The notes below the pieces were generated by a model, which saw only the letters and a list, made by a program, of their open reading frames with translations, was not told the DNA's origin and did no database searches. Of a stretch of 64,000 bases of DNA, positions 9,846 through 47,300 are shown in pieces. The stretch's first letter is position 1. The number at the start of each line of letters is the position of its first letter. The translations under genes and the position numbers were made by a program. Source of the stretch: a virus; the IMG/VR virus record IMGVR_UViG_3300045988_183986; one strand, written 5' to 3'.

Positions 9846-9883
9846 AGCAAAAAGCCGCCAATGGGACAATCCACTGGCGGCTC
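9846..9883 (-). terminator. leader terminator upstream of small membrane paralogs
   Basis: AGCCGCCAGTGGattgtcCCATTGGCGGCT + TTTTT on minus strand. Confidence 0.5.
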
Positions 9884-9929: not shown

Positions 9930-9965
9930 GTCTCAATTATATTAACTTCGCAGCATAATGCAAGA
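9930..9965 (-). promoter_or_regulatory. class B promoter (TTGCAT-tATGCTGCGAAGttaa-TATAAT)
   Basis: Variant of conserved spacer, immediately after sortase stop. Confidence 0.45.
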
Positions 9966-9971
9966 GCTTTT

Positions 9972-10943
9972 TCAGAAGACTTCGTCAAGTTTTGCACATA
10001 CAATAAAACGAGTATCGTAATTATCACTGCCTGAACAGGTGGACAAAATCAAAACCTTATCATTCAATCCAACTTCTGTGGCGTACTGATTGTAAGAGTA
10101 AGCTTTCATACTTGCAATCTCTGTCAGAAAATACGAATCATCCGGATTCGCAATGGTATAACTTGGGTCAATAGGATAATCGGCAACAGCAAAGATTTTC
10201 CATCGTGTCTGTTGTTCACCCAGAGTAAGATAAATATACCGATGTTCTTTTGCAAAGTTGACATCGCGGAAGTATTTCAAAACACTGAATTTCTTGTGCA
10301 TACTGTTTCCGTTGCTATGTCCAAAAATAACAGTTACTCTGTACATATCATCAACATTGCTGACATTCCATTCGGAGGGAACAAAATAAGCGCCCCAGAT
10401 ACTTTCCCTATCGAACTCATTGTGAGTCAGATAATAATCATCGTCTGTGGGATGCTGCAAAATTGGCTCATCTGTAACATCAACGCCGGGAACAGTTAAG
10501 TAACCAACGGTGTTTTTGGAATACGCTGGCTTTGGTGTCGGTTCCGGTTCTGAATCACTCTCACTTGAATTAGAAGACGGGATAAGAATCGAGGGAGTAG
10601 AAACAGGTTCTTCTACATCATCGGAGATGTTTCCTGTCTCATATGCAGGGATATGATAGTAATCATACGCTTTCCATCCAATATAGCCAATCATGGCAAT
10701 AAGAACGATGCAGATTACGACCAACAAAACTGTCCAGATGGAAAATCGCCGTTTCTCTTTGTCCTCTGACGCGTCCATCGCATCCATCGATTCATTGTCA
10801 TCCTCGTCATGACTTGCCTTTTGATGAGGGAAGTTTTCACCAGTTCCATCATCCTCATCATTTGGAATGTAATTGTACGCACCAAGTTCCTGCTCGAAAT
10901 GTTCTTCTTCAGGCAGTGGTGGAATAATAGGTGTTTTTGCCAT
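9972..10943 (-). CDS. srtB: class B sortase
   Basis: N-terminal TM anchor. Conserved His in IFGHSNGNS, catalytic Cys in LILSTCSGSD (TLxTC-like), Arg in YDTRFIVCAKL. Confidence 0.7.
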   Translation of the reverse strand: MAKTPIIPPLPEEEHFEQELGAYNYIPNDEDDGTGENFPHQKASHDEDDNESMDAMDASEDKEKRRFSIWTVLLVVICIVLIAMIGYIGWKAYDYYHIPAYETGNISDDVEEPVSTPSILIPSSNSSESDSEPEPTPKPAYSKNTVGYLTVPGVDVTDEPILQHPTDDDYYLTHNEFDRESIWGAYFVPSEWNVSNVDDMYRVTVIFGHSNGNSMHKKFSVLKYFRDVNFAKEHRYIYLTLGEQQTRWKIFAVADYPIDPSYTIANPDDSYFLTEIASMKAYSYNQYATEVGLNDKVLILSTCSGSDNYDTRFIVCAKLDEVF

Positions 10944-10954
10944 AATACATCACC

Positions 10955-12118
10955 TTATTCAGCTGCGGCAGACCGCTCGTACACATCAATGCAGTAGTTG
11001 CCCATAATCTTGTTGTACATGCACTCCTGTGCCAAAGGACCTGCCCCATAGGTATCAACGGCGTTATCATAGTTACTGCCAATATAAGCTTTTACTTCAT
11101 CGACAGACGGTTTATAGTCCTGTTCCTCTGCCAGATACTGCGCAACAAGGCTCAGTAAAACATTTTCTTCCGTCTGACTACGAAGACTTTCTGAATACTC
11201 CTCCGAGGTCTTATAATTGCTGTATGTCTGAACGAATGTCTCCAAGTCCATATTGTAGGCAGTTGCTTCGTTTTCGACATACTTCAAGTTGGTTTCAAGA
11301 CTCAGGTTGACAAGGTCTGTCGTATCCTTTTTGAGTTTTACATTGTCAATGAAATACTGTTCAATCTCATTCTGAATCTTATTCATACGAAGATTCTCTT
11401 CAACATATTCACGAAGCAGGTCTACTGTAGTTACAGCAGTGCCGTCTTGCAGCTTGTAGCCACTCATGATACCGGCAACATCAGCATCTGTCATGCTATA
11501 TTGAGAAATCTTATTAAGCGTTACATGGAAAACAGCTTCCTTGTTGGCGAGCTCGATAGTCTGCTCGCCTGTGGTTCTATCTGTTGTACTGCTATATCCA
11601 TCAGGGAATGTTACTGTGACGTCAAACGAATCCCCCGTGTTATGCCCGACGATTTGCTCTTCAAATCCGTCAATAAAGGTATTGGAACCGAGTTCCAAAT
11701 CGTAGTCTTCTGTTGTTCCACCGGTAAAAGCAACACCATCAACCGTACCCTCGTAGTTAATGTTCACAACATCGCCTTCCTGTGCGGCGCGGTCTGTTAC
11801 CTCTGTCGTCAGCTTGTAATTGGACTGAAAATAATCCAACTCATTTTGAATCTCCTCGTCTGTAACGGCGTATACATCTTTGCTGACCGTATACTTCTTA
11901 TAATCCTTGGGCATTTTTATGTACTTGGATGCAGTCACATCACGAAAATACCCGTCATCATCAAGACCGAGGTCATACTCAACAGCGGAAGCTGTTTCGG
12001 AGGTGGCTGTTTCCGCAGTCTCAGATGCACTTGTATCGGCCGTATCTTTACTGCACGCGGTCAATGCAATACATGCAGCACTGATGACCGCCAGAATCAT
12101 TTTTGCGTTTTTCTTCAT
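10955..12118 (-). CDS. trigger-factor-like FKBP-type PPIase lipoprotein (lacks ribosome-binding N-domain)
   Basis: Start MKKNAKMILAVISAACIALTACS (signal peptide + lipobox LTAC) with AAGGAG RBS. GDVVNINYEGTVDGVAFTGGTTEDYDLELGSNTFIDGFEEQIVGHNTGDSFDVTVTFPDGY closely follows the trigger-factor PPIase domain pattern. C-terminal ~200 aa are TF C-domain-like. Confidence 0.65.
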   Translation of the reverse strand: MKKNAKMILAVISAACIALTACSKDTADTSASETAETATSETASAVEYDLGLDDDGYFRDVTASKYIKMPKDYKKYTVSKDVYAVTDEEIQNELDYFQSNYKLTTEVTDRAAQEGDVVNINYEGTVDGVAFTGGTTEDYDLELGSNTFIDGFEEQIVGHNTGDSFDVTVTFPDGYSSTTDRTTGEQTIELANKEAVFHVTLNKISQYSMTDADVAGIMSGYKLQDGTAVTTVDLLREYVEENLRMNKIQNEIEQYFIDNVKLKKDTTDLVNLSLETNLKYVENEATAYNMDLETFVQTYSNYKTSEEYSESLRSQTEENVLLSLVAQYLAEEQDYKPSVDEVKAYIGSNYDNAVDTYGAGPLAQECMYNKIMGNYCIDVYERSAAAE

Positions 12119-12132
12119 GAAAATCTCCTTTA

Positions 12133-12170
12133 TAAAAAGACCCCGGCAGACAGGTTGCCTACCGGGGCAG
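12133..12170 (-). terminator. GC-rich hairpin + T-run after secE-like gene
   Basis: CCCCGG...CCGGGG stem followed by TTTTT, then RBS of lipoprotein gene. Confidence 0.45.
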
Positions 12171-12174
12171 TATT

Positions 12175-12426
12175 TTAAACGAACAGGAACGGGACATGAA
12201 GCAGCAGGGCATAAGCTGCATCCATGATACCAATGATAACGGCAGACACAGCGCTCACAGCAAGAACTGCTCCGGTTCGACGGAACGTATTGCGCATACT
12301 CGGCCAAGTCACATTTTTGGGTGCAACCAGATTGTGCAGTTTCTTGGGCGTGCTCTTGATGAAAGAAGGAATTGCCTTCACGAAATTCACGATAGCCATT
12401 CCAATCTTTTTCAGTTTCTTTTTCAT
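12175..12426 (-). CDS. secE: SecE-like small translocon subunit
   Basis: Start MKKKLKKIGM. KNVTWPSMRNTFRRTGAVLAVSAVSAVIIGIMDAAYALLL matches the bacterial SecE pattern (K.V.WP...E..R.T..V......F.LD). ATG overlaps the upstream gene stop (ATGA). Confidence 0.6.
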   Translation of the reverse strand: MKKKLKKIGMAIVNFVKAIPSFIKSTPKKLHNLVAPKNVTWPSMRNTFRRTGAVLAVSAVSAVIIGIMDAAYALLLHVPFLFV

Positions 12427-12677
12427 GCCGCACCTCCTACTCCGGTTACTACGAACATGATGATTGCGATAACAAGCAGAATAGCTGTACATACAGCAAC
12501 CAGTTTATTTGCGGACGTTTTCGTGCTGTCTTTAGCACTCGAGCGCATTGTATCACTGATTCCGGTGATAACACTAAGACTGTTCTTGTCAGCCTTATCC
12601 ATGGAAAGCGTAACCGCACAAACCAGAACAGAAACCAGCAGAATCAAGATGCACAGAATGATTTCATAAATTGCCAT
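12423..12677 (-). CDS. secG: SecG-like two-TM protein
   Basis: 84 aa. TM1 + polar loop (NSLSVITGISDT) + TM2, resembling SecG topology. Translationally coupled between SecY and SecE paralogs. Confidence 0.45.
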   Translation of the reverse strand: MAIYEIILCILILLVSVLVCAVTLSMDKADKNSLSVITGISDTMRSSAKDSTKTSANKLVAVCTAILLVIAIIMFVVTGVGGAA

Positions 12678-12692: not shown

Positions 12693-14033
12693 TCAATTCA
12701 AGAAACCCTTGTGATGGCGAACCACCAAATGGCTGTTAAGAGAATCGATAACTTCAAGCGTAACACCTGTGACAATCAACAGACTGGTACCGCCAAAGTG
12801 CATATTCAGACCTGTAACCGCAGTTGCCAAGATAGGCACACATGCAATAACCGAAAGAACAAATGCTCCCGAACCGGCGAGAGAATGGCAAGCATTGCGC
12901 AAATAATCACTGGTAGCTTTGCCTGCTCGAATACCGGGGATACTGCCGCCGTTCTTGCGCAGGTTGTTTGCCATTTCGATGGGGTCGAATGTGATGTCGA
13001 TGTAGAATAAGTTGAATGCGAAAATCAGGGCTACATACGCAACATCATAAATCCAATTCCGCGAATTCCAAGATGCCAGCGCCATATACAGGCTGGGGTG
13101 CTTGTTGTAATCGAGGAACATCGTCACGAGAGACGGCATACTGCAAATGGTGGACGAGAAAATAATAGGCATAACACCCGACATAATCAGTTTGATGGGG
13201 ATATAACTGGACTGACCAGTGGATGCTTTGTTCCCTACATTTTTACCGGCATACTGAACAGGAACGCGGCGCTCTGCATCGCTTGCGAAAACGACATAGA
13301 AGGTGGCCACCAAAACAAAGAGGATGACGCCGGGAATCATCAGATAATACCACCATCCATTTTCTTTGCCCATTGCAATAGAGTTCTGGAACAACGAGAT
13401 GACAGCATCCCATCTGGAAATGATACCGGTAAAGATGATAAGGGAAATACCGTTGCCAATACCTTTTTCGTCAATCAGCCATCCAAGCCAGATGACGATT
13501 TGAGAACCAGCAGTCAGAATGGCAATAACAGTAATGGCTTCCACGACCTGCGAAATGCCGGAAGTGTATTTCATCGCACCGTAGTTCTTCATAATAAAGA
13601 AGTACCCGATAGCTGTTACGACCGCCAAACCACAACCAACATACTGCGTGATTTTATTGATTTGCTTCTGCCCGCCGATGTCCTTGCTGATTTCTTCCAG
13701 TTTCGGAATCGCAACAGTCAAAAGCTGGATGATGATGCTTGCGTTGATGTATGCAGATACGCCAATCGCAAATACCGCACACTGAGAAAGTGCGCCACCG
13801 GAAACCAGATTGTAATAATCCAGTACAGAGGTGCTTCCGAACATAGTCTGAAGCGCAGCGGTGTTTACGAACGGAATCGTAATACCGCAACCCAGACGAT
13901 AAATCAGAAGACAAAGGATGGTGAAGAGAATCTTGTTGCGAACATCATCCACCATCAGCTTCTGAAAGATGGTGCTGTTCGAATAAGACTTTTTGAGTTT
14001 CGGCTTTTTCGCCGGATTTTTAATGTTGTCCAA
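12693..14033 (-). CDS. secY: preprotein translocase SecY paralog
   Basis: 446 aa, 10 TM. ILFTILCLLIYRLGCGITIPFVN...SGGALSQCAVFAIGVSAYINASIIIQLL is the canonical SecY N-terminal signature. Not flanked by ribosomal-protein/adk genes. Confidence 0.85.
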   Translation of the reverse strand: MDNIKNPAKKPKLKKSYSNSTIFQKLMVDDVRNKILFTILCLLIYRLGCGITIPFVNTAALQTMFGSTSVLDYYNLVSGGALSQCAVFAIGVSAYINASIIIQLLTVAIPKLEEISKDIGGQKQINKITQYVGCGLAVVTAIGYFFIMKNYGAMKYTSGISQVVEAITVIAILTAGSQIVIWLGWLIDEKGIGNGISLIIFTGIISRWDAVISLFQNSIAMGKENGWWYYLMIPGVILFVLVATFYVVFASDAERRVPVQYAGKNVGNKASTGQSSYIPIKLIMSGVMPIIFSSTICSMPSLVTMFLDYNKHPSLYMALASWNSRNWIYDVAYVALIFAFNLFYIDITFDPIEMANNLRKNGGSIPGIRAGKATSDYLRNACHSLAGSGAFVLSVIACVPILATAVTGLNMHFGGTSLLIVTGVTLEVIDSLNSHLVVRHHKGFLN

Positions 14034-14057: not shown

Positions 14058-14333
14058 TTATCGAGCAAAGAAAGCAACGATGATTCGCATCAGAAAGGCT
14101 ACAACGGCCAACTTCGTTGCAAGCCACATGAACCAATCGAGTTTGTCGATACCTTCGTCGAATACATTTGTTGCGGCAGCATCTTTTTTGTTACTGTCGC
14201 AATCCCCGTCAACATGGTTTTTCTTGATTTTGTTGCGATTAAGCACAAACAAAGTTCGAAACAAAGCCCATGTTGCAATACAGAATCCGTATACGATTAG
14301 AAGCTCGATACAGAAACTGTGCAAAGACGACAT
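14058..14333 (-). CDS. small membrane protein, hypothetical
   Basis: 91 aa, two hydrophobic segments. Immediately upstream of SecY paralog in same operon. Confidence 0.4.
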   Translation of the reverse strand: MSSLHSFCIELLIVYGFCIATWALFRTLFVLNRNKIKKNHVDGDCDSNKKDAAATNVFDEGIDKLDWFMWLATKLAVVAFLMRIIVAFFAR

Positions 14334-15010
14334 TAAGCGGATGCGCCGTTGGCGTCAGGAGTCGTATTGGAGGCGGTCTCGGCAACGGCCTCTACCGGAG
14401 TTTCCGTGACAGTCTCTGCGGGAGAAGTGATATCCCCGGTGATTGTGGGGACGTTGGCATCTTCTGCGACCGACTCATTGACGGGCGCTTCAATAACCGC
14501 ATCCTTGACTCCATCAGCAGTCACTTTCTTTGCTGCGATTTTTGCGAAGTGCTCATTGCGCTTTTCACGGCAAGCCTTGCAGCGGGTGGGGAGCTTGTAG
14601 TCATGGACGACATACCAGTACAGCTCGCGATTGGTAAACTGCAGCTTCTGACCGCAATCTGCGCAGGTGTCTTCCAGACCGATGTTATCCAGCCCGCGCT
14701 TCACGAAGTCGCGATGAATTTTGCGGCATTCCGGGCAGCGGTTCGGCAGAGAATAACCGTGACTCTCGAAGAAATCGCGGTCACGATTGGTGATGTCGAA
14801 TTCATGACCGCAGTCAACGCACTTGCGGGTCTCAAACACCTCATTGCTCTTTGCATCAGCTTCCTTGCGAGCTTCATCCTCTGCGCGGTGTTTTGCGAAA
14901 TCGTCACGCATACGACACTCGCGGCACAGCACCTCGCTCTCATTGGCGGTGCTGAACGGCTTGTTGCACTTCTCACAGGTCTTGCGGAACTTCTTTGCTG
15001 CATCTTTCAT
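14333..15010 (-). CDS. triple zinc-ribbon protein, hypothetical
   Basis: Three CxxC-(N15-22)-CxxC units (CEKC..CREC; CVDC..CPEC; CADC..CKAC), each followed by an FTN/ITN motif. Acidic C-terminal tail. Confidence 0.5.
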   Translation of the reverse strand: MKDAAKKFRKTCEKCNKPFSTANESEVLCRECRMRDDFAKHRAEDEARKEADAKSNEVFETRKCVDCGHEFDITNRDRDFFESHGYSLPNRCPECRKIHRDFVKRGLDNIGLEDTCADCGQKLQFTNRELYWYVVHDYKLPTRCKACREKRNEHFAKIAAKKVTADGVKDAVIEAPVNESVAEDANVPTITGDITSPAETVTETPVEAVAETASNTTPDANGASA

Positions 15011-15053
15011 GGTTTAAGTCTCCTTTATGGTAAAAAATTAAAATAATGATTGA

Positions 15054-15569
15054 TTAGGCGTTGGGACCAGAAAAAGAATCGATAATTTCATCAACGTGGA
15101 CGTTCAAGTCGGACTTGTCATCATCTTTCTTGGCGGGCTGTTTTACAGGAACAACGATATCAGGCTCATTCTTCTTTTCCTCCGCCGCCTTTTCTTCAAC
15201 AGGCTTCTCTGCGGATTTATCCTTGGCCTCAGTGACCTCGGACGCACTATCGGAATCCACCTTGCCGGATTCATCCTTACCGGCATCAGGATTCGCCTCG
15301 GTTGCCTTATCAGTATCCTTTTTCGTCTCATCATGCTTGCGTTCTACGCGGATGACATGAACGGCAGCCACGGGCGCGTGATGAATATCATCGATGCGCT
15401 CATCACAACCGCAGCACTCATCACAGTCATCACAATCGTCGTCATCATAAAGATAACCGTCATCCTCCAACTCTTTGATGACCTCGTTCTTCACATACTT
15501 GGTCGTGAGTTTCAGGGCAACGGCTGCAACAGTGGCGGCACCAATAACGGACAGAATGTTCTTCTTCAT
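15054..15569 (-). CDS. N-terminally anchored acidic protein with DDDDCDDCDECCGCDE cluster
   Basis: 171 aa. N-terminal hydrophobic segment. Asp/Cys-rich metal-binding-like cluster. K/E/D-rich tail. First gene after class A promoter at 15610..15646. Confidence 0.45.
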   Translation of the reverse strand: MKKNILSVIGAATVAAVALKLTTKYVKNEVIKELEDDGYLYDDDDCDDCDECCGCDERIDDIHHAPVAAVHVIRVERKHDETKKDTDKATEANPDAGKDESGKVDSDSASEVTEAKDKSAEKPVEEKAAEEKKNEPDIVVPVKQPAKKDDDKSDLNVHVDEIIDSFSGPNA

Positions 15570-15609: not shown

Positions 15610-15646
15610 TATTTATATTATACCACATAAATATAATGTGGTCAAT
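15610..15646 (-). promoter_or_regulatory. class A promoter: TTGACC-N17-TATAAT with TGTGGTATAATATA
   Basis: Minus-strand reading TTGACCacattatatttatgTGGTATAATATA. Drives the 15569->12175 operon. Confidence 0.6.
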
Positions 15647-15862: not shown

Positions 15863-16966
15863 ATGACATTTCAAAAGGGTGTAAAATTTAGAATCTACCC
15901 AAACCGGGAGCAGCGCAATCTGATTGACCGCACTCTCGGTTGCAGCAGACTCATTTACAATAAAGGTCTTGCCATGCGGGAGGACGCTTTCAAAAGCGGG
16001 GAAAAGTGCGGCTACAAGCAAACTTCTGCTATGCTGACAGCGCTCAAGCAGGATGCGAACTACGCGTTTCTCAAAGAGGTGGATTCCATTGCTTTGCAGC
16101 AAGCGCTGCGAAACCTTGATGCCGGATACACAAACTTTTTCGAGCATAGAGCTGCACATCCAAAATTCAAAAGCAAAAAAAGCGCCAAACAATCATACCG
16201 CACACTCAATATTGATAACGGTATACGCATTTCTAATAAGCGCATTCACTTACCGAAAATCGGTTGGGTAAAAGTTCATCAGTCTATGGAGATTGGCGCA
16301 ATTCACAACGCAACAGTAGCACGCACAGCCACCGGTAAATATTTCGTAGTTCTTAATGTGGAATATGACCCTCAGCCTATGCCAAACAACGGTTGTGTAG
16401 TAGGCATTGATGTTGGACTCAAAGAATTCTATTCCGATAGTAACGGTACTGTGGTTAATAACCCCAAATACTTGGAGAAAAAAGCCAAAAAACTTGCTCG
16501 CGAACAGCGGCGTTTGGCTCGCAAACAGAAAGGCTCACATAATCGTGAAAAGCAGCGTATAAGAGTCGCTGCCGCCCACGAAAAGATTGCTAATCAACGA
16601 AACGATTTCCTTCAAAAACAGTCTACTATGCTGGTGCGTGAAAATCAAACCATCTGCATCGAAGACCTTAATGTAAAGGGAATGCTTCGTAATCATAAAC
16701 TTGCAAGAGCTATTTCCAGTGTTTCGTGGTCGTCTTTCTTTGGCATGCTGGAGTACAAAGCCTATTGGTACGGTTGTACAGTAATTCGTGTACCTACATT
16801 CTATCCGAGCAGCCAAACATGCAGTTGCTGCGGCTATAAGAATGTGGCTGTCAAGAACCTCAGCATCCGTCAATGGGAATGTCCGTCTTGTCACACGGTT
16901 CACAACCGCGATAAAAACGCTGCCGTTAATATTTTGCATAAAGGGCTTGAGCAAAAGTCCGCTTGA
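15863..16966 (+). CDS. tnpB: IS200/IS605-family transposase accessory protein TnpB (RuvC-like, RNA-guided nuclease family)
   Basis: [34 protein letters not shown]-terminus. C-terminal zinc finger [27 protein letters not shown]. Confidence 0.85.
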
Positions 16967-25168: not shown

Positions 25169-25279
25169 AAAAAATCCTCCGAACGAGTCGCAATATAGTT
25201 GAAAGTACGAATTTTGGGATACTCTGCGTGATAAAATATAAGTGTCTACCAGATAACAATGGGACTCACTGACTGATGT

Positions 25280-25390: not shown

Positions 25391-25406
25391 AAGAAAGGAG
25401 TTATTT

Positions 25407-35811: not shown

Positions 35812-35875
35812 CATGAGTAACTTCTCCTTTTTCATGTGTGTTTGTTTGATGTGCATAAACAAGCTTCATGCACTA

Positions 35876-35990: not shown

Positions 35991-38900
35991 TTACTGCTTC
36001 TTTTCCTCGGTTTTATCCTCGGTCTTTTCAGCAGCTTTTTCTTCGCTATCGCCCTTCTTCTTCTTAACGATGACAAATGCGCCAACGCCAATCAGAGCAA
36101 CAACAACGATAACAGGAACGATGATGTCTGCGCCAAAACCAACGCCAGTCTTGTAGTTGACTACAACAGGTGCCGGAGTGGGAGCAGGTTCATTCTTGAC
36201 TACAGGAGTCGGAGTCGGTCTGCTTTCTTCCGGAGGATTCTCCAGCTTAACGCTTGCTACCCGGACATCGCCGTAGTTGCCTGCCTTATCGACTGTACGG
36301 GTCACAATGTAACCAGTCCAATCGGGGCTCAGCTTGAAGGTAACGTAACCGTTGTCCTTATCAATGCTTGTGACATTGACAGTCTCGAACTTGGTTTCGT
36401 CGAAGGTGTAATCGCCCTTAGCACTCTTGGCAATAGCAGAACCATTGACCTTGTAATACTGAATCTTAGCAACACCGGAGTTGTACTCGCCATCCAGAGC
36501 GGAGATAGCAGGAACGGAATCCTTGACCTTTACAACAGGCACGAAGTCGGGGTCTTCGGTATCATCCTTGCCACCGTTTTCGTCGGGAGTAGCAACGACA
36601 TCGTTACCGTTTTCGTCACCGGTCTCGTCGCCAGTTGTGAAGAGAGCGGGCTTGCCATGAGCAATACGAAGCGTAGTGGCTTCGGTCTTGTCATTGGTCG
36701 TTTCGGTCTTCTCGGACTCGGCGGGAACCTTCTCATCGGTACCGGATTCGGTTTCATCCTTCTTACCGGAATCTTCCTTCTTGTCGGTATCGTTCTTCTT
36801 ATCGTCCTTCTTATCGTTGTCCTTTTCGGGAGCCTTGCCGGTCTCTTCACCAGTAATGAACACATTGATGGTGCTCTCGAACTTGACAAACTTTTCGTTC
36901 AGCAAGTCGGTCTTATTGGTAGAATCAACCTTATCGGCAGCGAAAGCGGAAGCAACGACAGGAGCTTCGGTATCAAGAGAAGTGATGATAGTTCCCATCT
37001 CGGTAATGGCACCGGTCTTCAGGTCAATCAGGTAATAGGTAGAAGTAACCTTCTCACTATTAGCGGAAATGACCATCTTCTCGGCCCACTCAGCATCGGT
37101 CAGGGAATCGCTGGTTCCGATTGCGTAACCCTTAGGAGCGATAACTTCAACCTTAGAGTTGAAGTACAGGCCACTCAGGTCATCAGTCGTCTTCTTGGTA
37201 ACCTCAACAGGCTTACCGGTCTTTTCGTCAGCCACAGTACCAACGATAGTTGCGGGCTCTACATCGGCAAGATGCAGACGCTGAACTTCGAGGTCTCCGG
37301 TGGTAGGTAGGTAATTGTAGTTGTCGTAAGCGCCGCCAACATACTTGAAAGCGTCCTTCGTCAAGCCAACATTACCGAAGATACCATCGATGCTGGAAGC
37401 AACAATGAGTTCGAAGGAAGGCAGCTTAACGGTTTCAGCAGTCTCGTCGAAAGCGTAACCACTGGTCTTGATTTCGGGAATCTCCGTCTTAGTGCCATAC
37501 AGCTTGACGACGGGGTTCGGGTCGAGAGTAACCGTCAGGTCTTTACGAGCAATAACGAACTGACCATCGGCTTCGTTCTTATCGGCATCAACGACCTTGA
37601 TGGTTACTGCGTAATTCTGCTCAACAGCAGCATCGTAATCAGAAGTAACGGTGTAGGTGTAAGTACCAGCGTTCTTGACGTTTTCAGTCTTGAATTGGCT
37701 GTCACTCTCCACGCCGTCATCGCCGCTTGCGATATCAGGAGTCAGAGTAGCCTTTGCATCAGCGGTCAAGGGAGCAGTCTGTGCATTGTCGGTGGTCTTG
37801 TCGTTCTCGAAAGGAGTATAAACAAGTGCCATCTTCAGACCCAGAGAATCAGGTTTGACAGCTGCACCGTGTGTACCGTCGCCATTAGTGGCAACAGCAT
37901 TAACGGTGAAATCGGGGTTAGTGGTATCGCCATAGACGATATCCTTGGGCTCGGTGACAGTGACTTCTACCAGACGCTCGCCAATGGTGTAGACGCCATT
38001 GACAATCGTAATCAGGTAATCGTCATTGTCGTAAGAACCGACCATGTCGTATGCACCGTAATTCTTGACAGATTCGGGCACGCTCTCCGCAACCAGAGAA
38101 GCAGCACCATCAGCAGACTTCATGGAAATCTTTTCGGCAACCGCGTTCTCAACATCCTTCTGAGTGATGCTGATAATAGCTTTCAGGTCATCGCCATTTA
38201 CGATGGTCTTCTTATCGGCATCGCCAGTATAGGTAAGAGTATTGCTCAGTTCAGCCATTTCATTGCCGTAGACAGAACCAACAGTGCCGATGGTCCAAGT
38301 CAGAGGACGCTGAGTGACCGTGTAAGTGCCGTTCATAGCAGTTACCAGATAATCCTGATAAGAAGCTTGACCGACGCGGTGAGCCAGACCGGAGAAGGAA
38401 GGAACAATGTCATAGCCTCCGACATGGCTTGCAGAAGTGACGAGGCACAGGTTCGTGCCTTCCAGAATATCACCATTGACCAGAGCTGCCTTGGCAGTGT
38501 CACCAGTGTATTCCAGAACGTTCACGGTGCCGTAATCAGACCAATCTTCAACAGCAACATCGTCGCCATAGATAGAAGTCTGGGGCTTAGCGGTGACAGT
38601 GATGGGACGCTTGTCGATAACAAAATCAACGGGAGCGTAAACAAAGGTGTAGTTGTTTGCTGCGGCATTCTCAACATTTGCAGGAACGACCTTGCCGGTA
38701 CCAGCGTGAGAAGCTACCGTTGCGGGAGCTCCCTCAGCATCTGTGAAGTTGAAGGTCAGGTTTGCAATGCTCAGGACACCAGCATCATCAGGAGTGGTGT
38801 TGCCCTTGACGGGTTTCACAACGAATCCATCGAAAATCAGGTCGTCGCCGGAGAGAACAGGGTTCTCATCGCCGTAAATCTTGCTCTGGGGAGCCAGAGT

Positions 38901-41900
38901 AACATTCAGCGTAGCAGGAGTGATTTCAAAGGTGTTGTTTACGCGGGTGATATTGAAGTTGGCATCATCGCCCTCGATAATCATCGGGTGCTTGCCGACA
39001 TCTTCACCAGCATCGGTGCCAGCGTCAGGACGAACAACCTTCAGATTTGCAAGGTCGCCTGCATCCTCGCTCACATAGTAAGCGCCGTCACCAGTTGCAG
39101 TCCAAGTCAGTTCGGGGTCAGCCTCGCCGTAGACCTTCTTCTGGCCTTCGTCAACAACCACGATTACATCGCGCTTATCGACATGCAGAGAACCATCAAC
39201 AAAGACAATGGGGTCATAGTTCTTTGCGCCCTTGTTTTCCAGACCGCTCATGGTGATGACATAATCGCCAGCAGCAGGACGAGCAGGAATCTCGGACAGA
39301 GAACCGTCAGCATTCTTGATGTTGTAGACAACCGAGCCAGTGAATGCGGAAGCAACGGTGTCATTGTTCTTCAAGCCAGTAACGGTGTAGCTGAACGTGG
39401 GAACGGTGCCGCCATAAATCATGGAGTAACCGCCAGCCACAGTAAAGGTGACCTTAACGGGCTTGATGGTCAGAGTAGCAACTTCCATAGCTTCGGGCTC
39501 GGTGGTGGAAGAACCAACATCGACGGAAGTGCCGGAGCCAGTCACGATGGTGATGGCGTAGTTGCCGTACTTGTTGTACAGAGTAGAGCTGATGGGATAT
39601 TCACCGACATCCTCACCGGCTTTGCGAGTGACAGAACCACTCAGAGCACCAGTAGTCAGTTCCAGCGTATTCTTCTTCAGACCATCGTTGGAAATGTTGC
39701 CGGAAATCTCGCTGTAAGAGAATGCGGGGTCTGCATCGCCGTAATCCTTCTCGTAGTTGGAGAAAGTCAGGGTGATGGGACGAGGAGTGATGGTGATGGT
39801 AGAATCAATCACCGTCAGGTCGTAGTTGGCAGGCTGTGCGTAGATAGCTTTCAGAGCATAAGTGCCAACGCTTGCGGAAGCAGAAGTTGCACCGGAAGTC
39901 AGGGTAATGCCCTTAAGAATCTTTTCGGCTTCTGCTGCCTGAACATCAGTAGTAGTCAGCAGACCAGTGCCGCCCTTGATGTAATCCTTCACGTTCATAG
40001 AAGTGAGGGTCTCACCATAGGTCTTTTCGGTTTCAAGCAGGTTGATAACGGCAGTACGCTTATTGATGGTGAAGCGAACATCATTGGTGAAGCTGATACG
40101 ATAGTTCTTTGCCATCGTCTGCTCATAGATGTTACCGCTGTAAATCGGATAAGTGCCAGCGTTCTCGCCTGCTTCACGGCTCAGACGAGCCTGTGCGAAG
40201 TCGGCCTTGGGTTCTGCGAAGCTGGTGGTGTTGTAGTCGAAGATGACATAGGTATCGTTGACTGCAAAGCTGGGGTCAGTCTCGCCGTAAGTCTTGGACA
40301 GGCCATAGCGAGGAGTGATGGTCAGGGGCATCTGATGAACAATCAGCATGTTCTTGCCATCGGGCTCAGACAGCTTAACGCTGTTTGCGGGCTGGTTATC
40401 CAGACGGAAGGTCAGGTTGTAAGAACCTGCATCGTACAGACCAGAAGCGTTCGCAGTAGCCTCAACGGCGATACGAACAACACCCAGAGAAACATCCTTG
40501 CCGTCCATCTTGATGTTGACGGTTTCGCCATCGTGGTAAATCTGAGTGCCATCGGAGGTATTCACGTTGACGGAAACTTCCTTGGCGATGGTATCGGGCT
40601 TCTTCTCACCGTAAGTAGTCTGCAGTGCGTTGAAGGTGACAGAGACATCAGCCTCGGTGACTTGGAACGTAGCCTGCGGAGCAATCGTTACGATGTAGTT
40701 GGGGTTCTCATCATAAGAGATGGTAGCCTCATAGTTGCCGACAACCGTAGTGGGGTCTTCCCACTTGGTCAGGTCGATGTGGATGTTCAGCGGGCTGCCC
40801 TGCGGGTCAACCACATTGATAGCCTGAGAACCGGTCTCGTCATACAGCGCATAGCTGGGGGTGTTCTTACCGGCAACGCCATACTTACGGACGCTGTTGG
40901 TAGTACCCTTGATGGTGACAGGCAGTGCATTGATAGTCAGCGTACCGCTTGTACCATCGCTGTAAGTGCCGGTATAAACGATGTTGTAGTTGGGGTTGGT
41001 GTAACCGGAAACAACAATAGGATAGGTACCGACACCAGTCAGCTTACCAACGGTATTGTCAACGCCATACTTGATGGTGACAGTGCCGCCCAGAGAAGCG
41101 ACGGTATCATGGATGCCGATTTCATCGTTGCTTGCGAAGTTCTTGTATTCCAGTGCGCCGGTAATGTCGGCATCGCTGGGATTCTCTGCGCCATACAGAC
41201 GCTCACGGTTCGGAACGGTGATGGTCAGAGTACGCTTGGTGATAGTGTACTTATCGGGAGCATTGAAGGTGATGTCGTAGTTCTTGGCGATTTCAGCAGT
41301 CTGGAACTGTGCATCGCTGTAAGCGTAAGAGCCAACAGTCTCGCCGACCTCACGAGTCACAACGCAGCCAGCAAAGTCGGAACCAACACGGCCACCCTTG
41401 CCATTGACGGGGTCAAGAGTAAAGGCAACGCCGCCCTTGGCATCACTGTCGCCGTAAACCTTCGTCTGACCGCCCATCACATTGATGGCGATAGGACGCT
41501 TGGTAACGGTCAGCTTGCTGTTGACAAAACGAACCAGATAGTTGTCGTAACGGTCGTAGTTCTTGCCATCGGCATTGGGGTCCCAGTCAGAAGACCAACG
41601 CTCCTGAGAAGCACCCTGCACAGATGCGCTGACGGTGTATTCGCCAACATTGGCAGTTGTAGGAGTGCCGCTGTTACCAGCCGCATCTACCATAGTAAAG
41701 CCAAGCTTGTCCTCGGTCAAACCGATGCTTGCCTGTGTATCGTTCAGCTTGAAACCTTCGATGGATTTAATCTTGCCGGAACGAGCAGCGCCATACATTG
41801 CGGACAGGTCATCGAGAGTGACAGTCAGCATTGCAGGATGGATGATGTACTTGCTGTTGATGACCTTGACGTCATAGTAAGCAGTGCATGCAGGGGGAAC

Positions 41901-43943
41901 TTCGACAGTCATCGGATATTCGCCAACATTCTTATTGTCGATATCCTGACGCTGTGTTGTCAGAACCATGCTGACCAGCTTGTTCACACCGTCATCAGCG
42001 GTGATGTCGGAACCGGCGACAATACGCTTATCGGAGGCCACTGCCTGAGCAGCACCGTTATAAGCAACAGCGTCGAAGGTGATGGTGGAAGACTTGCCCT
42101 TTTCAGCCTCACCATAGATGGCATCAATCTGGTCATTGGTGATGGTTACGTTACGCTTGGTAATTTCAAACGTTGCGGTAGCAAGGTTGATGTTATAACC
42201 ATTGATAGGCGCATTCGTCTGGATATTGCCGATTGTAACAGTGTAGCCACCGGGAGCAGAGGTGATGCTGGGCAGAACAACGGTGGGTTCACCGCTCAGA
42301 CCAAGCATCTCTTTCAGAGCAACTGCGTTGGACTTGTGCTCGTTGTTGGTCTTATACTCGAAATTGGTTTTATCGGTATCAGACCAACCGGTAATCACGA
42401 AGTCAACCTGAGGATTCTGCTGACCATACTGACGAGTGGCTTTGCTGCCGGTCGTCTGTACGCCATCATTGCCCTTGAAGACAAATACAGGAGTCAGGGT
42501 CAGAGTCTTTTCAGAAACGACAACATACACATCGCCGGTATTGGGCTGAATGTCGATGTTGTAGTTCGTGTTGCTCTTCGCGGAGGAACCTAAGATGATT
42601 TTGTAAGAACCGGTAGTGTCCTTATCGAAGTTCTCTGTGGTCAGAACATCCGCAGGAAGCAGGTCGCCGTCAACCAGACCACCATTGGTATCCATAACGG
42701 TGTAGTTAATCTGGCTGATGGTATTGCCCTTCGTAACATAGGTGGTATGAGGGACAATGTAAATCTGACGCTTGTTGATAGTCACACCCGTGTCATTGCG
42801 GATGTTCTTGGAAGAATCCAAGTTGGAACCATCAATGATGGTGTAATTCAGACCATTCACAGTAACGCTTGTGGCACCTGTATCAACATAAGTCGGATAA
42901 GTACCGGCATTGCAATGAATGTCTGTGGGATTCTGGCCGTCGCCATCAGCCGGAGCATACATGATGAAGCTCAGACCGTCGATAGCTGCCTGAATATCCT
43001 TTTCGACTTCCTGAGAAGTACGGGAATCAGCAGTGCTGTATTCGATGGTCAGACCCTTAGACTTGAAAGAGTCACCGTAGGTGTAGGTAACAGTCTGAGG
43101 CAGAATGCGAATGACATTCTCCTGACCGCTAATCTTGGTATACTGAATACCCGTGCCTGCGGCAATCTGCTTACCAGTCTCAGCAGCGGTGATTGCCTGA
43201 TAGTCCCCGATGACAGTCGTAGAACCGCCGCCATCAAACGCGCTGGCACCGCTGTTGTCTACGGGGTTTTCCTGACGGTCGCAAACCTGCAGATACAGGT
43301 CAGACATGTCAAGGTATGCATTCATGACGGGCTCGGCGACCTGCTCATCCTCGCTCAGAGAATAATACATGTCTTCAATGGGTTCCCAGTCATAAACTGC
43401 ATCCAGTTCCTCAGTGCGACGCGTGACCATCGCATCAAGAACCGCGTTTTCCTTGTCAGCCTGCCATGCCTTGCTTGCAAGACCGAAGTTGTTTGCAGCA
43501 GTCAGAATTTCATCTTTACGGCTTACAAGGGCGTTAGCCGCATCGATAAATGCCTGTGCTGCTTCACTGATGCTGCCAGTGGTAGAAGCTTCGCTGGAAG
43601 TGCTGGTGCTTGCACCAGTATCAGAGGCAGCACTGTTTGCGTAGGCAGTGGTCGTTTCAGACCCCGCCTGACTTGTAGCCTCAGAAGAAACATCGCTCGT
43701 CACAGAAGTGTCGCTGGACGCGGAACTTGCTGTGTCGGTAACATCGCTTTTCGGCGCGGGAGTAGTAGCGGAAGAGTCGGAGTTTGTTGTCGTAGTGCTG
43801 AGTGCATCAGTTTCCTTCGGAGCTTCTTCACTCTGCGTGATTCCACTCGCGCTCTCCACTGCATAAGCAGTGACAGGAGCAAACTGAGACAGGCACATTG
43901 CTACGGCGACAATCGCACTCAAAAACCGCTTACGAGGTTTCTG
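35991..43943 (-). CDS. giant cell-wall-anchored adhesin (~2,650 aa) with MBG (YGX-type) repeats and C-terminal N-Y-K-T-G sorting signal
   Basis: ORF 35991..44009. Start MQKPRKRFLSAIVAVAMCLSQFAPVTAYA (signal peptide, AGGAGGG RBS). Ser/Thr-rich N-terminal stalk. >15 repeats with TxTKRPxT...KxYGxxDP signature. C-terminus PTPAPVVVNYKTGVGFGADIIVPVIVVVALIGVGAFVIVKKKKGD. Confidence 0.85.
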   Translation of the reverse strand, partial: QKPRKRFLSAIVAVAMCLSQFAPVTAYAVESASGITQSEEAPKETDALSTTTTNSDSSATTPAPKSDVTDTASSASSDTSVTSDVSSEATSQAGSETTTAYANSAASDTGASTSTSSEASTTGSISEAAQAFIDAANALVSRKDEILTAANNFGLASKAWQADKENAVLDAMVTRRTEELDAVYDWEPIEDMYYSLSEDEQVAEPVMNAYLDMSDLYLQVCDRQENPVDNSGASAFDGGGSTTVIGDYQAITAAETGKQIAAGTGIQYTKISGQENVIRILPQTVTYTYGDSFKSKGLTIEYSTADSRTSQEVEKDIQAAIDGLSFIMYAPADGDGQNPTDIHCNAGTYPTYVDTGATSVTVNGLNYTIIDGSNLDSSKNIRNDTGVTINKRQIYIVPHTTYVTKGNTISQINYTVMDTNGGLVDGDLLPADVLTTENFDKDTTGSYKIILGSSAKSNTNYNIDIQPNTGDVYVVVSEKTLTLTPVFVFKGNDGVQTTGSKATRQYGQQNPQVDFVITGWSDTDKTNFEYKTNNEHKSNAVALKEMLGLSGEPTVVLPSITSAPGGYTVTIGNIQTNAPINGYNINLATATFEITKRNVTITNDQIDAIYGEAEKGKSSTITFDAVAYNGAAQAVASDKRIVAGSDITADDGVNKLVSMVLTTQRQDIDNKNVGEYPMTVEVPPACTAYYDVKVINSKYIIHPAMLTVTLDDLSAMYGAARSGKIKSIEGFKLNDTQASIGLTEDKLGFTMVDAAGNSGTPTTANVGEYTVSASVQGASQERWSSDWDPNADGKNYDRYDNYLVRFVNSKLTVTKRPIAINVMGGQTKVYGDSDAKGGVAFTLDPVNGKGGRVGSDFAGCVVTREVGETVGSYAYSDAQFQTAEIAKNYDITFNAPDKYTITKRTLTITVPNRERLYGAENPSDADITGALEYKNFASNDEIGIHDTVASLGGTVTIKYGVDNTVGKLTGVGTYPIVVSGYTNPNYNIVYTGTYSDGTSGTLTINALPVTIKGTTNSVRKYGVAGKNTPSYALYDETGSQAINVVDPQGSPLNIHIDLTKWEDPTTVVGNYEATISYDENPNYIVTIAPQATFQVTEADVSVTFNALQTTYGEKKPDTIAKEVSVNVNTSDGTQIYHDGETVNIKMDGKDVSLGVVRIAVEATANASGLYDAGSYNLTFRLDNQPANSVKLSEPDGKNMLIVHQMPLTITPRYGLSKTYGETDPSFAVNDTYVIFDYNTTSFAEPKADFAQARLSREAGENAGTYPIYSGNIYEQTMAKNYRISFTNDVRFTINKRTAVINLLETEKTYGETLTSMNVKDYIKGGTGLLTTTDVQAAEAEKILKGITLTSGATSASASVGTYALKAIYAQPANYDLTVIDSTITITPRPITLTFSNYEKDYGDADPAFSYSEISGNISNDGLKKNTLELTTGALSGSVTRKAGEDVGEYPISSTLYNKYGNYAITIVTGSGTSVDVGSSTTEPEAMEVATLTIKPVKVTFTVAGGYSMIYGGTVPTFSYTVTGLKNNDTVASAFTGSVVYNIKNADGSLSEIPARPAAGDYVITMSGLENKGAKNYDPIVFVDGSLHVDKRDVIVVVDEGQKKVYGEADPELTWTATGDGAYYVSEDAGDLANLKVVRPDAGTDAGEDVGKHPMIIEGDDANFNITRVNNTFEITPATLNVTLAPQSKIYGDENPVLSGDDLIFDGFVVKPVKGNTTPDDAGVLSIANLTFNFTDAEGAPATVASHAGTGKVVPANVENAAANNYTFVYAPVDFVIDKRPITVTAKPQTSIYGDDVAVEDWSDYGTVNVLEYTGDTAKAALVNGDILEGTNLCLVTSASHVGGYDIVPSFSGLAHRVGQASYQDYLVTAMNGTYTVTQRPLTWTIGTVGSVYGNEMAELSNTLTYTGDADKKTIVNGDDLKAIISITQKDVENAVAEKISMKSADGAASLVAESVPESVKNYGAYDMVGSYDNDDYLITIVNGVYTIGERLVEVTVTEPKDIVYGDTTNPDFTVNAVATNGDGTHGAAVKPDSLGLKMALVYTPFENDKTTDNAQTAPLTADAKATLTPDIASGDDGVESDSQFKTENVKNAGTYTYTVTSDYDAAVEQNYAVTIKVVDADKNEADGQFVIARKDLTVTLDPNPVVKLYGTKTEIPEIKTSGYAFDETAETVKLPSFELIVASSIDGIFGNVGLTKDAFKYVGGAYDNYNYLPTTGDLEVQRLHLADVEPATIVGTVADEKTGKPVEVTKKTTDDLSGLYFNSKVEVIAPKGYAIGTSDSLTDAEWAEKMVISANSEKVTSTYYLIDLKTGAITEMGTIITSLDTEAPVVASAFAADKVDSTNKTDLLNEKFVKFESTINVFITGEETGKAPEKDNDKKDDKKNDTDKKEDSGKKDETESGTDEKVPAESEKTETTNDKTEATTLRIAHGKPALFTTGDETGDENGNDVVATPDENGGKDDTEDPDFVPVVKVKDSVPAISALDGEYNSGVAKIQYYKVNGSAIAKSAKGDYTFDETKFETVNVTSIDKDNGYVTFKLSPDWTGYIVTRTVDKAGNYGDVRVASVKLENPPEESRPTPTPVVKNEPAPTPAPVVVNYKTGVGFGADIIVPVIVVVALIGVGAFVIVKKKKGDSEEKAAEKTEDKTEEKKQ

Positions 43944-44087
43944 CATGTTAGTTGCCCTCCTAATAATGTGAGTGTTCTGTGGTTTTACCACAGCCGGATT
44001 TATATACACCCTTACCTACTCCCTAGTGTGCAGCCTCGATTGTAGATAAGAAAGTATATCAAAACACAAGCAATCAAATTGCATATT

Positions 44088-44373: not shown

Positions 44374-47300
44374 TTATTCAGCGGAATCATCCTTATGGTT
44401 ATCTTTGTTGTCGTTTTCGTCCTTCTTGCGCTTGTGGTTTACTACCACCAGAGCAGCGACGCCAATGCCAACCATTGCTACCAGCCCAACAATGCTCTGT
44501 GCAAATCCGATACCCGTCTTCTTGTTGCTCGTGAAGATAGAGAAGAGGGAGAAGGGTTTGCCGTCTACCTTGAAGATATCGAGCCAGCCAATCGGCGGGG
44601 TCTTGGGCTTCTCAGTAGGAACAGGGGTCGGAGTAGGCTTCGGGTTGTCGGGAGTCGGAGTCGGTTTAGGCTCGTCAGGCGTTGTGGGAGTAGAGGGTTT
44701 CACAACAGGGACTTTCACCTCGTTGGAAGGTTTCTCTACATCTTCATCAATCGGCTTGGACGGGTCCTTACCATGACCCGGATTCTCGGGGTCTTCGGGA
44801 TTCTGACCCGGAGCCTTAGCGACAGCCACGTTAATGACATCGTGTCCGGCATCCGCGTCAACGGCAACATAAGAATAGGTCAGAGTGAAGGATTCGCCAA
44901 CAGGGATACGAGCAATAGTGAACGTTGTCGTTGCGCTATTGTAAGTATATCCATCACCGTTCTGAGCTTCAATATGGCTTTCGCCGTCATTGTTGTCCTT
45001 TACGGTTACATTGACAAGGTCTACTTCACCAGTATTGGTTACTACCACACGATAATTGATGGTTTCACCGACATTGACTTTCGTCTTGTCAGCACTCTTC
45101 ACAATCGTGAGGCTCTTTTCGAGCGGAACATCCGTTTCCGTACCGGAACCCGGAACTTCCACATCGACCTTGTTGGACGGAATATCCGTATCAGGGTCAA
45201 TCGGTTTCGTCGGGTCTTTACCCTGTCCGGGATTCTCCGGGTCTTCAGGGTTCGTACCGGGAACATGAATCGTCGCTACGTTTTCAAGAATGTGCGTGGT
45301 CACATCGGCGATACCGACAGTATAAGCGTAGTGGACAACCACATCGCCGCCAGCAGGAATCGTGTCGATGGTGAATACACCATTCTCATAGTGATAACCA
45401 GCGCCATCCACTGCGAAAATGCTTCCGGAGAAGTTATTCTCATCAGTCAGAGCAGCATTCTGAATATCGTGGTCTTTGCCATTGTGTACCGTTACGGTAT
45501 AGGTGACAGTCTCACCCAGCTTTGCGACAGTCTTGTTTGCAGACTTCCAGATGGTGACAACGCCATCATCAGGCTTCTTCACATCGACTGTATTGGACGG
45601 GATATTATACTGCTCGCCATCGTGCGTGTACTTAATGGTTGCGGTATTCTCCATAACGCTCTCATCGGTCGTCTCTACCGTATAGGTATAAACGATATCA
45701 AGAGCCTCACCGGCATCCAGATAACCGATAGTCCAAGTACCGTCTCCGTTATAGGTATAGCGGTTAGAACTCTCAGCCGTAACATCACCCGCAAAGTTGT
45801 TATGGTCTGCGACAGTGATATCGTTTACGGTTTTGTCTGTCGTATTCTTCACCGTAATGGTGTAGGTCACAACATCTGTCACCTTAGCGATATACTTATC
45901 GGCATCCTTTTCAACATCGATAGGCGGTGTCGGGTCTTTCACAACAGCAGCGTTCAGAACCTTAGGAGCATCAGCGGTAACTACCACATAGGTGAAGTTA
46001 AGCGTTACGCTCTCGCCAGCCTTTACAGTGCTGATGGTATAGGAGTTGTCGCCGTTATCCGCAACACCATCCATAGGTACGAAGTTGAGCGTTCCGTTGC
46101 CATCGAAGAAGTCTTCGACAACAACATTTTCCGCATCAATCTTGCCCTTGTTGGCGACAGTAACCATATAGTTGAGCGTATCGCCAACCTTGGCTTCTGC
46201 CTTATCAACGGACTTGGTGATTTCGATTACAGGAATCTCTGTTTCGGTTTCAGAGCCGGAAACTTCCACATCAACCTTGTTGGACGGAATCTCCGTATCG
46301 GGGTCAATGGGTTTCTCGGGGTCTTTGCCGTGACCCGGATTATTCGGGTCTTCGGGATTCGTGCCGGGAACATGGATTGTTGCAATGTTTTCGAGAATCT
46401 GCGTGGGCACATCAGCAATTTCAACCGTATAGGTGTAGTGGATAACCACATCACCGCCTGCGGGAATCTTATTGATTGTGAATTCGCCGTTCTCGAAGGT
46501 GTAATCTGCACCTTCAACGCTTACGATTTCGCCAGCAAAGTTGTTGGTGTCTGTCAGACGAGCGTTTTCGATGTCGTGATTCTTTCCGTTATGAACCGTG
46601 ACGGTATAGGTTACAACCTCACCCGGCTCAGCCTTTGTCTTATCTGCAGCCTTGCGGATGGTAACAACACCATCATCGGGCTTCTCGACATCGACGGGGT
46701 TAGAGGGGATATTGTAATCTGTGCCATCCTTGCTGTAAGTCACATTTGCAATGTTTTCGATGACGGTGGCATCCTCAGCCTGCATCGTATAGGTGTAGGT
46801 GATATGGATGGTCTCGCCAGCGGCAATAGTCGGAATAGTCCATGTCTTATTGCCATTGTAAGTGTACTTGTCAGCGTTTTCGGCCTTGATTTCGCCCTTG
46901 AAGTTGTTAGTATCGGTGACAGTTACATTGTCAACAGGCTCAGAAGTGGTGTTCTTCACGGAAATCGTGTAGGTTACAACCTCATCAACCTTTGCAATGT
47001 GCTTGTCGGCTTCCTTCTCGACGTCAACAGGCGGTGTCGGGTCTTTGATTACTGCGGCGTTCAGTACGAGAGGTTCGTCTCCTTCAACTACAACATAGCT
47101 GAAACGAAGCTTTACGCTCTCCCCTGCCTTGACCGTAGAAATAGTGTAGGTGTTGTCTCCGTTATCTGTCACACCATCCATGGCCTTGAAGTTCAGCGTT
47201 CCGTTTCCGTCAAAGAAGTCCTTAATCAGGATATTCTCAGCATCCGCGTTACCGCCGTTCTTGACAGTGACGGTGTAGTTTAGCGTATCACCAATCTTGG

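Follow-up and report, generated by a model that had tools for sequence, protein, structure and literature searches.

What does a trigger factor (TF) do beside a protein-export channel, and on which side of the membrane does it act? TF is the textbook ribosome-bound chaperone, and the question was raised by a gene at 10955..12118 (minus strand, stop codon included; 387 aa, as read from the sequence) of IMGVR_UViG_3300045988_183986, an IMG/VR virus record of 64,000 nucleotides referred to here, at its full length, as the window. The gene lies between a SecYEG set and a sortase gene on what is, by its match to the published description, a gut-bacterial "Hodor" conjugative megaplasmid of roughly 350 kb. 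The product kept the peptidyl-prolyl isomerase (PPIase) and C-terminal domains of TF and carried a predicted lipoprotein signal peptide in place of the ribosome-binding domain, which points to a TF homolog redirected to the outer side of the cytoplasmic membrane.

Residues 71-349 of the protein matched positions 108-371 of the 410 in the NCBIfam model TIGR00115 (tig) with an E-value of 3.8e-50 and 170.9 bits, a score below the curated equivalog cut-off of 180.2 bits. Because the N-terminal ~107 positions of the model were unmatched, the ribosome-binding domain is missing. The Pfam search of the 387-aa protein returned FKBP_C (2e-16) and Trigger_C (2e-4, slightly under the gathering score) and no Trigger_N (PF05697), and the GFRxGxxP motif was absent from the protein; the motif was present, as GFRxG, in the 45 canonical TFs of the survey described below. 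When solved structures were searched by sequence, all significant matches were TFs, among them 8p7x (2e-19) and the E. coli protein 1w26 (3.5e-17, phmmer alignment). An AlphaFold2 (AF2) model built from a 42-sequence family alignment reached pLDDT 86 and pTM 0.74, and its top eight Foldseek matches were full-length TFs (E 1e-11 to 8e-9). An earlier reading made from the letters of the window (the sequence-only reading) had named the protein a TF paralog that retains the PPIase and C-domain, and had proposed profile comparison with Tig and structure prediction as checks; both comparisons were run and agreed with it.

The chaperone body comprised three parts, all on the minus strand. An N-segment (residues 45-103; 11810..11986) aligned to the final N-domain strand and the linker of TF (TF ~95-150 in 1w26) and contained the family-invariant residues G51, G56, A63, Y66 and P70. 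Within it, residues 45-70 aligned to that last strand, and this alignment suggests an origin from a full-length TF by N-terminal truncation. The FKBP-type PPIase domain covered residues ~104-207 (11498..11809), and the C-terminal (arm) domain, residues 208-387 (10958..11497), was all helical. The E. coli TF pocket residues F168, F177, F185, I195, F198, Y221 and F233 corresponded to Y122, F131, Y139, I149, F152, Y175 and F197, and in the 42-sequence alignment each of the seven was either invariant or conserved to at least 90%. F198 of E. coli TF has a role in PPIase activity. Since the pocket residues are conserved, catalytic competence of the FKBP domain is plausible. Relative to E. coli TF, the family also had its own insertion of ~10 residues in the FKBP domain (residues ~179-188, window 11555-11584, minus strand; consensus STDAEGNxI), situated between the equivalents of Y221 and F233, with D180 invariant and T179 at least 90% conserved.

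The start codon was the ATG at position 12118, with the Shine-Dalgarno sequence AAGGAG (12125..12130, minus strand) 6 nt upstream. Residues 1-22 (12053..12118, minus strand) form a predicted lipoprotein signal peptide, judged from sequence, charge, hydropathy and conservation. It consists of the n-region MKKNAK (net charge +3), the hydrophobic stretch MILAVISAACIA and the lipobox L-T-A-C, in which Cys22 is the predicted lipidated residue; the mean Kyte-Doolittle value of the h-region, residues 7-21 (15 residues), was 2.48. The arrangement follows the pattern of signal peptidase II substrates (positive n-region, hydrophobic h-region, [LVI][ASTVI][GAS]C at ~15-35 residues), and Cys22 was at least 90% conserved in the family alignment. 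Residues 23-44 (11987..12052, minus strand) make up a flexible tether, called from composition and low pLDDT, that is rich in Thr, Ser, Ala and Glu (22 aa; T6 S5 A6 E3 D2 when tallied over residues 23-46), and residues 1-44 were disordered in the AF2 model (pLDDT <50). The claim that a signal peptide with an LTAC lipobox stands in place of the ribosome-binding domain held, given the canonical n-, h- and lipobox parts and the conserved cysteine. The predicted topology is that of a lipoprotein with an extracytoplasmic body, not that of a cytosolic protein such as Tig.

A true start lying further upstream, named by the sequence-only reading as the circumstance in which there would be no signal peptide, was also considered. 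The GTG at 12433 opens a 492-aa reading frame that spans secE and the hairpin following it and has no similarity to the TF N-domain. In relatives both near and remote (L081, L082, L085 and L087), in-frame stops lie 4-14 codons 5' of the same ATG, which excludes this longer frame; the ribosome-binding site likewise lies at the ATG.

The architecture recurred widely outside the megaplasmid. The best 120 homologs had FKBP_C with or without Trigger_C and measured ~330-520 aa, and PF05697 was detected in none of these 120. Lipoboxes among them read LTAC, LAAC, ITAC, LAGC and AAGC, and some Faecalibacterium-type sequences had a signal-anchor transmembrane (TM) segment. A GTDB survey with one genome per species recovered 80 loci, which divided into 45 canonical TFs with GFRxG and 35 proteins without the N-domain. 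The lipobox rule was passed by 29 of the 35, a lipobox was visible by eye in two more (L053 and L057), three (L008, L024 and L064) had a K/R-rich N-terminal tail and a single TM segment (signal anchor) instead, and one was interrupted by a contig end. The existence of two anchoring solutions, lipobox and TM, argues for selection on tethering outside the membrane. P0072, P0087 and P0093 also had a K/R-rich tail and a single TM helix and no lipobox cysteine, and the tether of P0270 was ~130 residues long.

Hosts included Faecalibacterium, Gemmiger, Ruminococcaceae, Lachnospiraceae, Acutalibacteraceae, Tyzzerella, Robinsoniella and Johnsonella, among others; cultured strains with a chromosomal homolog include F. 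prausnitzii (WP_423406252), Gemmiger formicilis An812 and Johnsonella ignava ATCC 51276. A 69-aa query taken from the N-segment matched 76 clusters (50% level), nearly all of them 360-405 aa long and aligned from residue 35-80 onward; P0258 (941 aa), a repeat-rich, tail-fibre-like protein, was judged a chance match. In a crude identity-based neighbor-joining tree, 29 of 39 TF-like lipoproteins fell in one pure clade and the others elsewhere. The F. prausnitzii member is named "trigger factor" by NCBI, and no description of the family was found in the literature searched (the search was not exhaustive).

The module around the gene has been described before. Hodor elements are conjugative megaplasmids of 211-389 kb from the human gut that were initially mistaken for huge phages (Yuan et al., bioRxiv 2026, PMC12934698). 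Their surface module was listed as hyp, SecY, SecG, SecE, trigger factor, class B sortase and giants of ~2642 and >7300 aa; the giants are secreted and have MBG domains and a cell-wall sorting signal, and a chaperone role of the TF for them was already proposed (PMC12934698). In Hodor metatranscriptomes, TF and SrtB formed one co-transcribed unit and SecYGE another, and the replicons carry Rep_3, ParA/B/M and a type IV secretion system (T4SS) (PMC12934698). Compared with the preprint's description, the window matched feature for feature, including ParM and TnpB; the gene studied here is the same as the Hodor "trigger factor". Curated genomes of 38 Hodor elements are deposited at Figshare (10.6084/m9.figshare.31385365). 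The missing N-domain, the export signal and the chromosomal family are not in the preprint's main text, which has zero occurrences of lipoprotein, ribosome, PPIase and FKBP, and its label implies a cytosolic TF. The extracytoplasmic topology and the broad Clostridia family of N-domain-less TF lipoproteins are thus new here, while credit for the module and for a generic chaperone role belongs to that work.

The position of the TF-like gene next to a SecYEG set and a sortase gene, as the sequence-only reading had it, was confirmed; the gene lies between the two. The order zinc-ribbon (zf) gene, SecY, SecG, SecE, TF-like and sortase was kept in relatives at 98, 72, 59 and 58% identity, with gaps of 12-24 nt or overlaps between the genes. 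The sortase (323 aa; 9972..10943, minus strand) begins 12 nt 3' of the TF-like gene, and in L082 the two genes overlap. It is class-B-like, with 5.9e-22 and 78 bits against TIGR03064, where the cut-off is 153.75; Pfam Sortase gave no match at E<0.1, and the catalytic motifs FGH, LSTC and TRF were visible. Ahead of its single TM segment is a strongly acidic, cytoplasmic N-terminal tail of ~65 residues, an uncommon feature in sortases that might serve for docking.

Two large surface proteins are the candidate clients. The first (2651 aa; 35991..43946, minus strand) has a Sec signal peptide, five MBG_2 domains and a C-terminus made up of NYKTGVGF, a TM segment and KKKK. The second (>6523 aa; 44374..64000, minus strand), whose N-terminus lies beyond the window end, has MBG_2, DUF11 (22 copies), DUF7507 (20 copies), DUF7927 and CARDB domains and ends in NKKTGIGF, a TM segment and HKRKK. 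Both C-termini (35991-36120 and 44374-44500) therefore follow the pattern xKTG(V/I)GF, hydrophobic segment and K/R tail, and an MBG relative in L092 (C-terminus at 2295-2594) ends in QAPTGVG, a TM segment and KKK. Motifs of class-B sortases, for example NPKTG or (S/P)PxTG, resemble the giants' C-terminal motif. That motif is non-canonical, with TG(V/I)G alone conserved over NYKTGVGF, NKKTGIGF and QAPTGVG and no LPxTG. The description of these proteins as giant MBG/DUF11 surface proteins was correct, sortase-type C-termini being present on both and the Sec signal being seen on the 2651-aa protein. When the flanks of L082, L087, L090, L092 and L095 were scanned for sorting signals with a regular expression, none was returned, though its pattern missed the QAPTGVG of L092, which was visible by direct translation. 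In L092, a 2627-aa MBG protein lies 5.4 kb upstream on the same strand.

From the topology and this context we consider it more likely than not that the protein is a TF homolog re-targeted outside the cytoplasmic membrane, acting on polypeptides that leave the translocon, with the giants as its preferred clients on Hodor. In the mechanism that we infer, export, lipidation, chaperone and PPIase activity, client identity and coupling to SecYEG or the sortase would fit together as follows. The protein would be made with a type-II (lipoprotein) signal peptide, exported through Sec and lipidated on Cys22, and the ~22-residue flexible tether would hold it at the membrane-wall interface. The N-segment and C-terminal arm would form a chaperone cradle, with the FKBP prolyl isomerase inserted in it, that binds the unfolded chain at the translocon exit, a mirror image of cytosolic TF at the ribosome exit. 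On Hodor, its clients would be the two giant multi-domain surface proteins, threaded through the plasmid SecYEG and attached by the co-transcribed class-B-like sortase. TF needs no ATP, a property suited to a compartment that has none.

By this account the protein would be a functional analog of PrsA, with an FKBP domain replacing parvulin. PrsA is the known extracellular foldase of Gram-positive bacteria (Bacillota), and its N+C chaperone domain accommodates the PPIase as an insert (review PMC12445088). It is a lipoprotein outside the membrane with a post-translocational role, both of which are predicted for the window protein, and the PrsA-type layout, in which the N+C SurA/TF-like chaperone domain of a lipoprotein is interrupted by a PPIase, was found here. 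The two differ in that the PPIase of PrsA is a parvulin and that of the window protein FKBP-type (no rotamase/parvulin domain was found in the Pfam search of the window protein); PrsA sequence homology was not detectable, and the chaperone module is a true homolog of the TF C-domain. The sequence-only reading had proposed a role like that of PrsA in a protein unrelated to it in fold. The shared layout is in keeping with the first part, and the second is incorrect for the chaperone module. A fusion of S. aureus PrsA, minus its signal peptide, with the TF ribosome-binding domain rescues TF/DnaK-deficient E. coli (PMC6858329), which implies that, once re-tethered, either chaperone module can stand in for the other. 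The window protein would be the converse of that engineered PrsA-on-ribosome experiment (PMC6858329).

Several observations weigh against this account. The lipoprotein call is rule-based and drawn from conservation. A terminator-like hairpin separates secE from the TF-like gene, the giant genes lie ~24 kb from the TF-like gene in the window, and the proline content of the giants is an ordinary 4.1-4.7%. PrsA's PPIase activity is largely dispensable (review PMC12445088), and by that parallel the FKBP domain may be of little importance here. Chromosomal members of the family are mostly stand-alone, so the family is not intrinsically an adhesin factor, and at the N-domain-less GTDB loci neither SecY nor a related sortase lay within 10 kb (tblastn with the window proteins, which other sortase classes would escape). 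The proposal of a dedicated post-translocational foldase for giant adhesins consequently stands in part. Topology and context agree with it; dedication to adhesins is plausible but unproven, given that most family members are stand-alone, the giants are 24 kb away and a hairpin follows secE.

The alternative that survives best is a general extracytoplasmic foldase, in which the gene would be a plasmid xenolog of a housekeeping Clostridial TF-like lipoprotein that serves T4SS parts, lipoproteins, enzymes and adhesins without distinction; it would raise the host's general capacity for folding after export and have no particular link to the giants. Members of the family are for the most part encoded by monocistronic chromosomal genes, and those of F. 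gallinarum and F. prausnitzii stand alone in syntenic positions beside malic enzyme and fumarase genes. The 35 of 80 GTDB loci that are of this type, with SecY or a related sortase near none of them, favor such a role, as does the promiscuity of TF and PrsA as chaperones. So do two copies on mobile elements that lack SecYEG and sortase, L090 (8001-9149) and L095 (3498-4607). Against it, the TF-like gene is among the few genes common to both deeply diverged Hodor groups, where it is always joined to the sortase and follows SecYGE. L087 (10001-12169), an unrelated mobile element, moreover holds a second, independent pairing, in which a TF-like lipoprotein of 47% identity is followed 460 bp downstream by a different, 181-aa sortase. 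On balance we regard a purely general role as rather unlikely. These copies hint at repeated recruitment of the TF-like lipoprotein by mobile elements in gut Clostridia. The contexts of the mobile-element-like contigs L087, L090 and L095 included resolvase, N6_N4 methyltransferase, pEK499_p136, ThyX and DSPc. The one exception among the 80 GTDB loci was Filifactor (L050), where a canonical TF had a distant SrtB-like match 6 kb away.

The tightest linkage of the TF-like gene is with the sortase, as seen in the 12-nt gap, the L082 overlap, the co-transcription reported in PMC12934698 and the L087 pairing, and the hairpin parts it from secE. It might then be an accessory or scaffold of the sortase, its TF-like body holding the sorting-signal region or a membrane-retained giant intermediate, or stabilizing the sortase, with the FKBP domain as a binding surface only. 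This is very unlikely in view of the stand-alone chromosomal homologs without an adjacent sortase, the full PPIase pocket under purifying selection and the lack of a known precedent for a TF-fold sortase partner.

About equally unlikely is a cytosolic TF-type chaperone that would keep the giant pre-proteins translocation-competent before SecA/SecYEG, as SecB or the Desulfitobacterium PceT might, its N-terminus being no signal or an inward-facing anchor; PceT is an N-domain-less, cytosolic TF paralog without ribosome binding, a specialized chaperone that binds a Tat signal peptide before export. Although the "trigger factor" label of NCBI and PMC12934698 suits this and N-domain-less cytosolic paralogs exist (three of the four Myxococcus Tig paralogs, PMC13599543), we give it very little weight, since the signal parts are canonical, the cysteine is conserved while signal sequences in the family otherwise diverge freely, the low-complexity tether after the lipobox is typical of Gram-positive lipoproteins, the lipobox-less variants with a positive-inside N-tail and TM segment also place the body outside, and the Myxococcus paralogs are explicitly without signal peptides (PMC13599543).

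The post-translocational chaperone that we favor can also be set beside other known proteins. Tig shares with it the FKBP PPIase and C-terminal arm, homologous and in the same order, and the pocket residues; it differs in having a ribosome-binding domain of ~110 residues with GFRxGxxP where the window protein has a lipoprotein signal and tether. The window protein also has the 10-residue FKBP insertion, a score below the TIGR00115 cut-off and a predicted extracytoplasmic location. The periplasmic chaperones of the SurA, PpiD and PEB4 types are parvulin PPIases of diderms, with other anchoring and outer-membrane-protein clients. FKBP lipoproteins of envelope machines (Bacteroidota BamJ-type BAM subunits and the SprA-bound PPI of T9SS), as well as Mip/FkpA, have no TF arm domain, belong to diderms and have other partner machines. 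Myxococcus Tig2-4 are specialized TF paralogs without ribosome binding, but they are cytosolic and lack a signal peptide (PMC13599543).

A natural lipid-anchored TF would show the same ATP-independent cradle at work on both sides of the membrane, and the mechanism implied for the Hodor "trigger factor" would become post-translocational instead of pre-translocational. Genome annotation lumps the whole family with Tig, including the member in the gut commensal Faecalibacterium prausnitzii. The family would offer a handle on how monoderms fold surface proteins of several thousand residues and could find use in secretion engineering of Clostridia. More tentatively, these proteins could be an unrecognized major class of post-translocational chaperones of gut Clostridia, mislabelled "trigger factor", one of which Hodor would have acquired along with its own SecYEG and a sortase, with the Hodor copy docking at the exit of the plasmid translocon to complete a self-contained secretion-folding-anchoring line. 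We hold this wider proposal to be doubtful, though conceivable; if it were true, the protein would make possible the export of adhesins of 2,600-7,700 aa and be the extracellular mirror of TF at the ribosome tunnel.

The rest of the secretion module lies upstream of the TF-like gene on the same strand. The hairpin behind secE (12140..12168, minus strand) has a 13-bp stem with 8 GC pairs and a T-run. It was kept with compensatory changes in L092 at 72% identity (9945-9978) and was absent in L082 at 58% identity, where the gap is 24 nt. It fits the separate SecYGE and TF-SrtB transcripts of PMC12934698. There is no room for a promoter 3' of it, and the hairpin may therefore act as a partial terminator or as an mRNA-stabilizing or processing site that sets the ratio of SecYGE to TF-sortase. 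A second terminator-like hairpin (9852..9883, minus strand) closes the TF-like/sortase unit.

The SecE paralog (83 aa; 12175..12426, minus strand) matched PF00584 at 4.1e-8 and TIGR00964 at 4.6e-8. The SecG-like protein (84 aa, two hydrophobic segments; 12423..12677, minus strand) gave weak matches to PF03840 (2.4e-3) and TIGR00810 (4.2e-4), and the gene goes by the name SecG in the published module (PMC12934698). At 12423-12426 the stop of secG and the start of secE share the sequence ATGA, an overlap that suggests coupled translation of the small translocon subunits. SecY (446 aa; 12693..14033, minus strand; PF00344 8e-87) scored 330 bits against TIGR00967, above the canonical SecY equivalog cut-off of 253.6, and only 150 bits with the accessory SecY2 model. 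No SecA was seen in the window, and host SecA presumably serves the plasmid translocon.

Three conserved small genes head the Sec operon (14058-15569, minus strand). The first encodes a 171-aa signal-anchored, Cys-rich protein that contains a CDDCDECCGCDE cluster and has an acidic tail. Next comes the multi-zinc-ribbon (zf_Tbcl) protein, the preprint's "hyp" (14333..15010, minus strand; PF13451 2.4e-10), which heads the module and was conserved 5' of SecY in all Hodor-like relatives examined (L081, L082, L092 and L093). A 91-aa membrane ORF with two TM segments (14058..14333, minus strand) lies 3' of it. A promoter-like site at 15617..15645 (minus strand), called from its consensus match only, reads TTGACC, a 17-nt spacer and TATAAT with a TG extension (11 of 12 positions). 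Directly 5' of it is an IS605-type TnpB gene (OrfB_IS605, Cas12f1-like TNB; 15863-16966, plus strand), which was not at the corresponding place in L081 and L085.

Proteins 97-99% identical to those of the window were found on IMG/VR contigs of 88.9, 240.7 and 346.0 kb, the same 90% clusters had members on contigs of up to 353-382 kb, and related contigs measured 240-382 kb. Rep_3 and the T4SS did not turn up in the window, where no search aimed at them was made. A phage origin, under which the record is catalogued in IMG/VR, was set aside: PHROGs gave one partition protein and unknowns, and the literature describes a Hodor megaplasmid once taken for a huge phage. Megablast of the window against PLSDB and INPHARED gave no match. 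The closest cellular relatives of the TF-like protein were in Faecalibacterium and Gemmiger (39-40% identity) and that of SecY in Gemmiger sp. (49% identity), which hints weakly, from sequence similarity, at a Ruminococcaceae source or host.

The remainder of the window consisted mostly of genes without a Pfam match, together with the TnpB, a PIN protein, a radical-SAM protein and a flotillin/SPFH protein (31224-32759, minus strand). The partition protein is ParM/Alp7A-like and actin-related (24209-25429, minus strand; phrog_691 5e-29). Immediately downstream of the giant genes lies a gene for a 233-aa acidic lipoprotein with the lipobox FVGC (35155-35856, minus strand), which is probably one of the preprint's "three downstream neighbour genes" of the giant operon.

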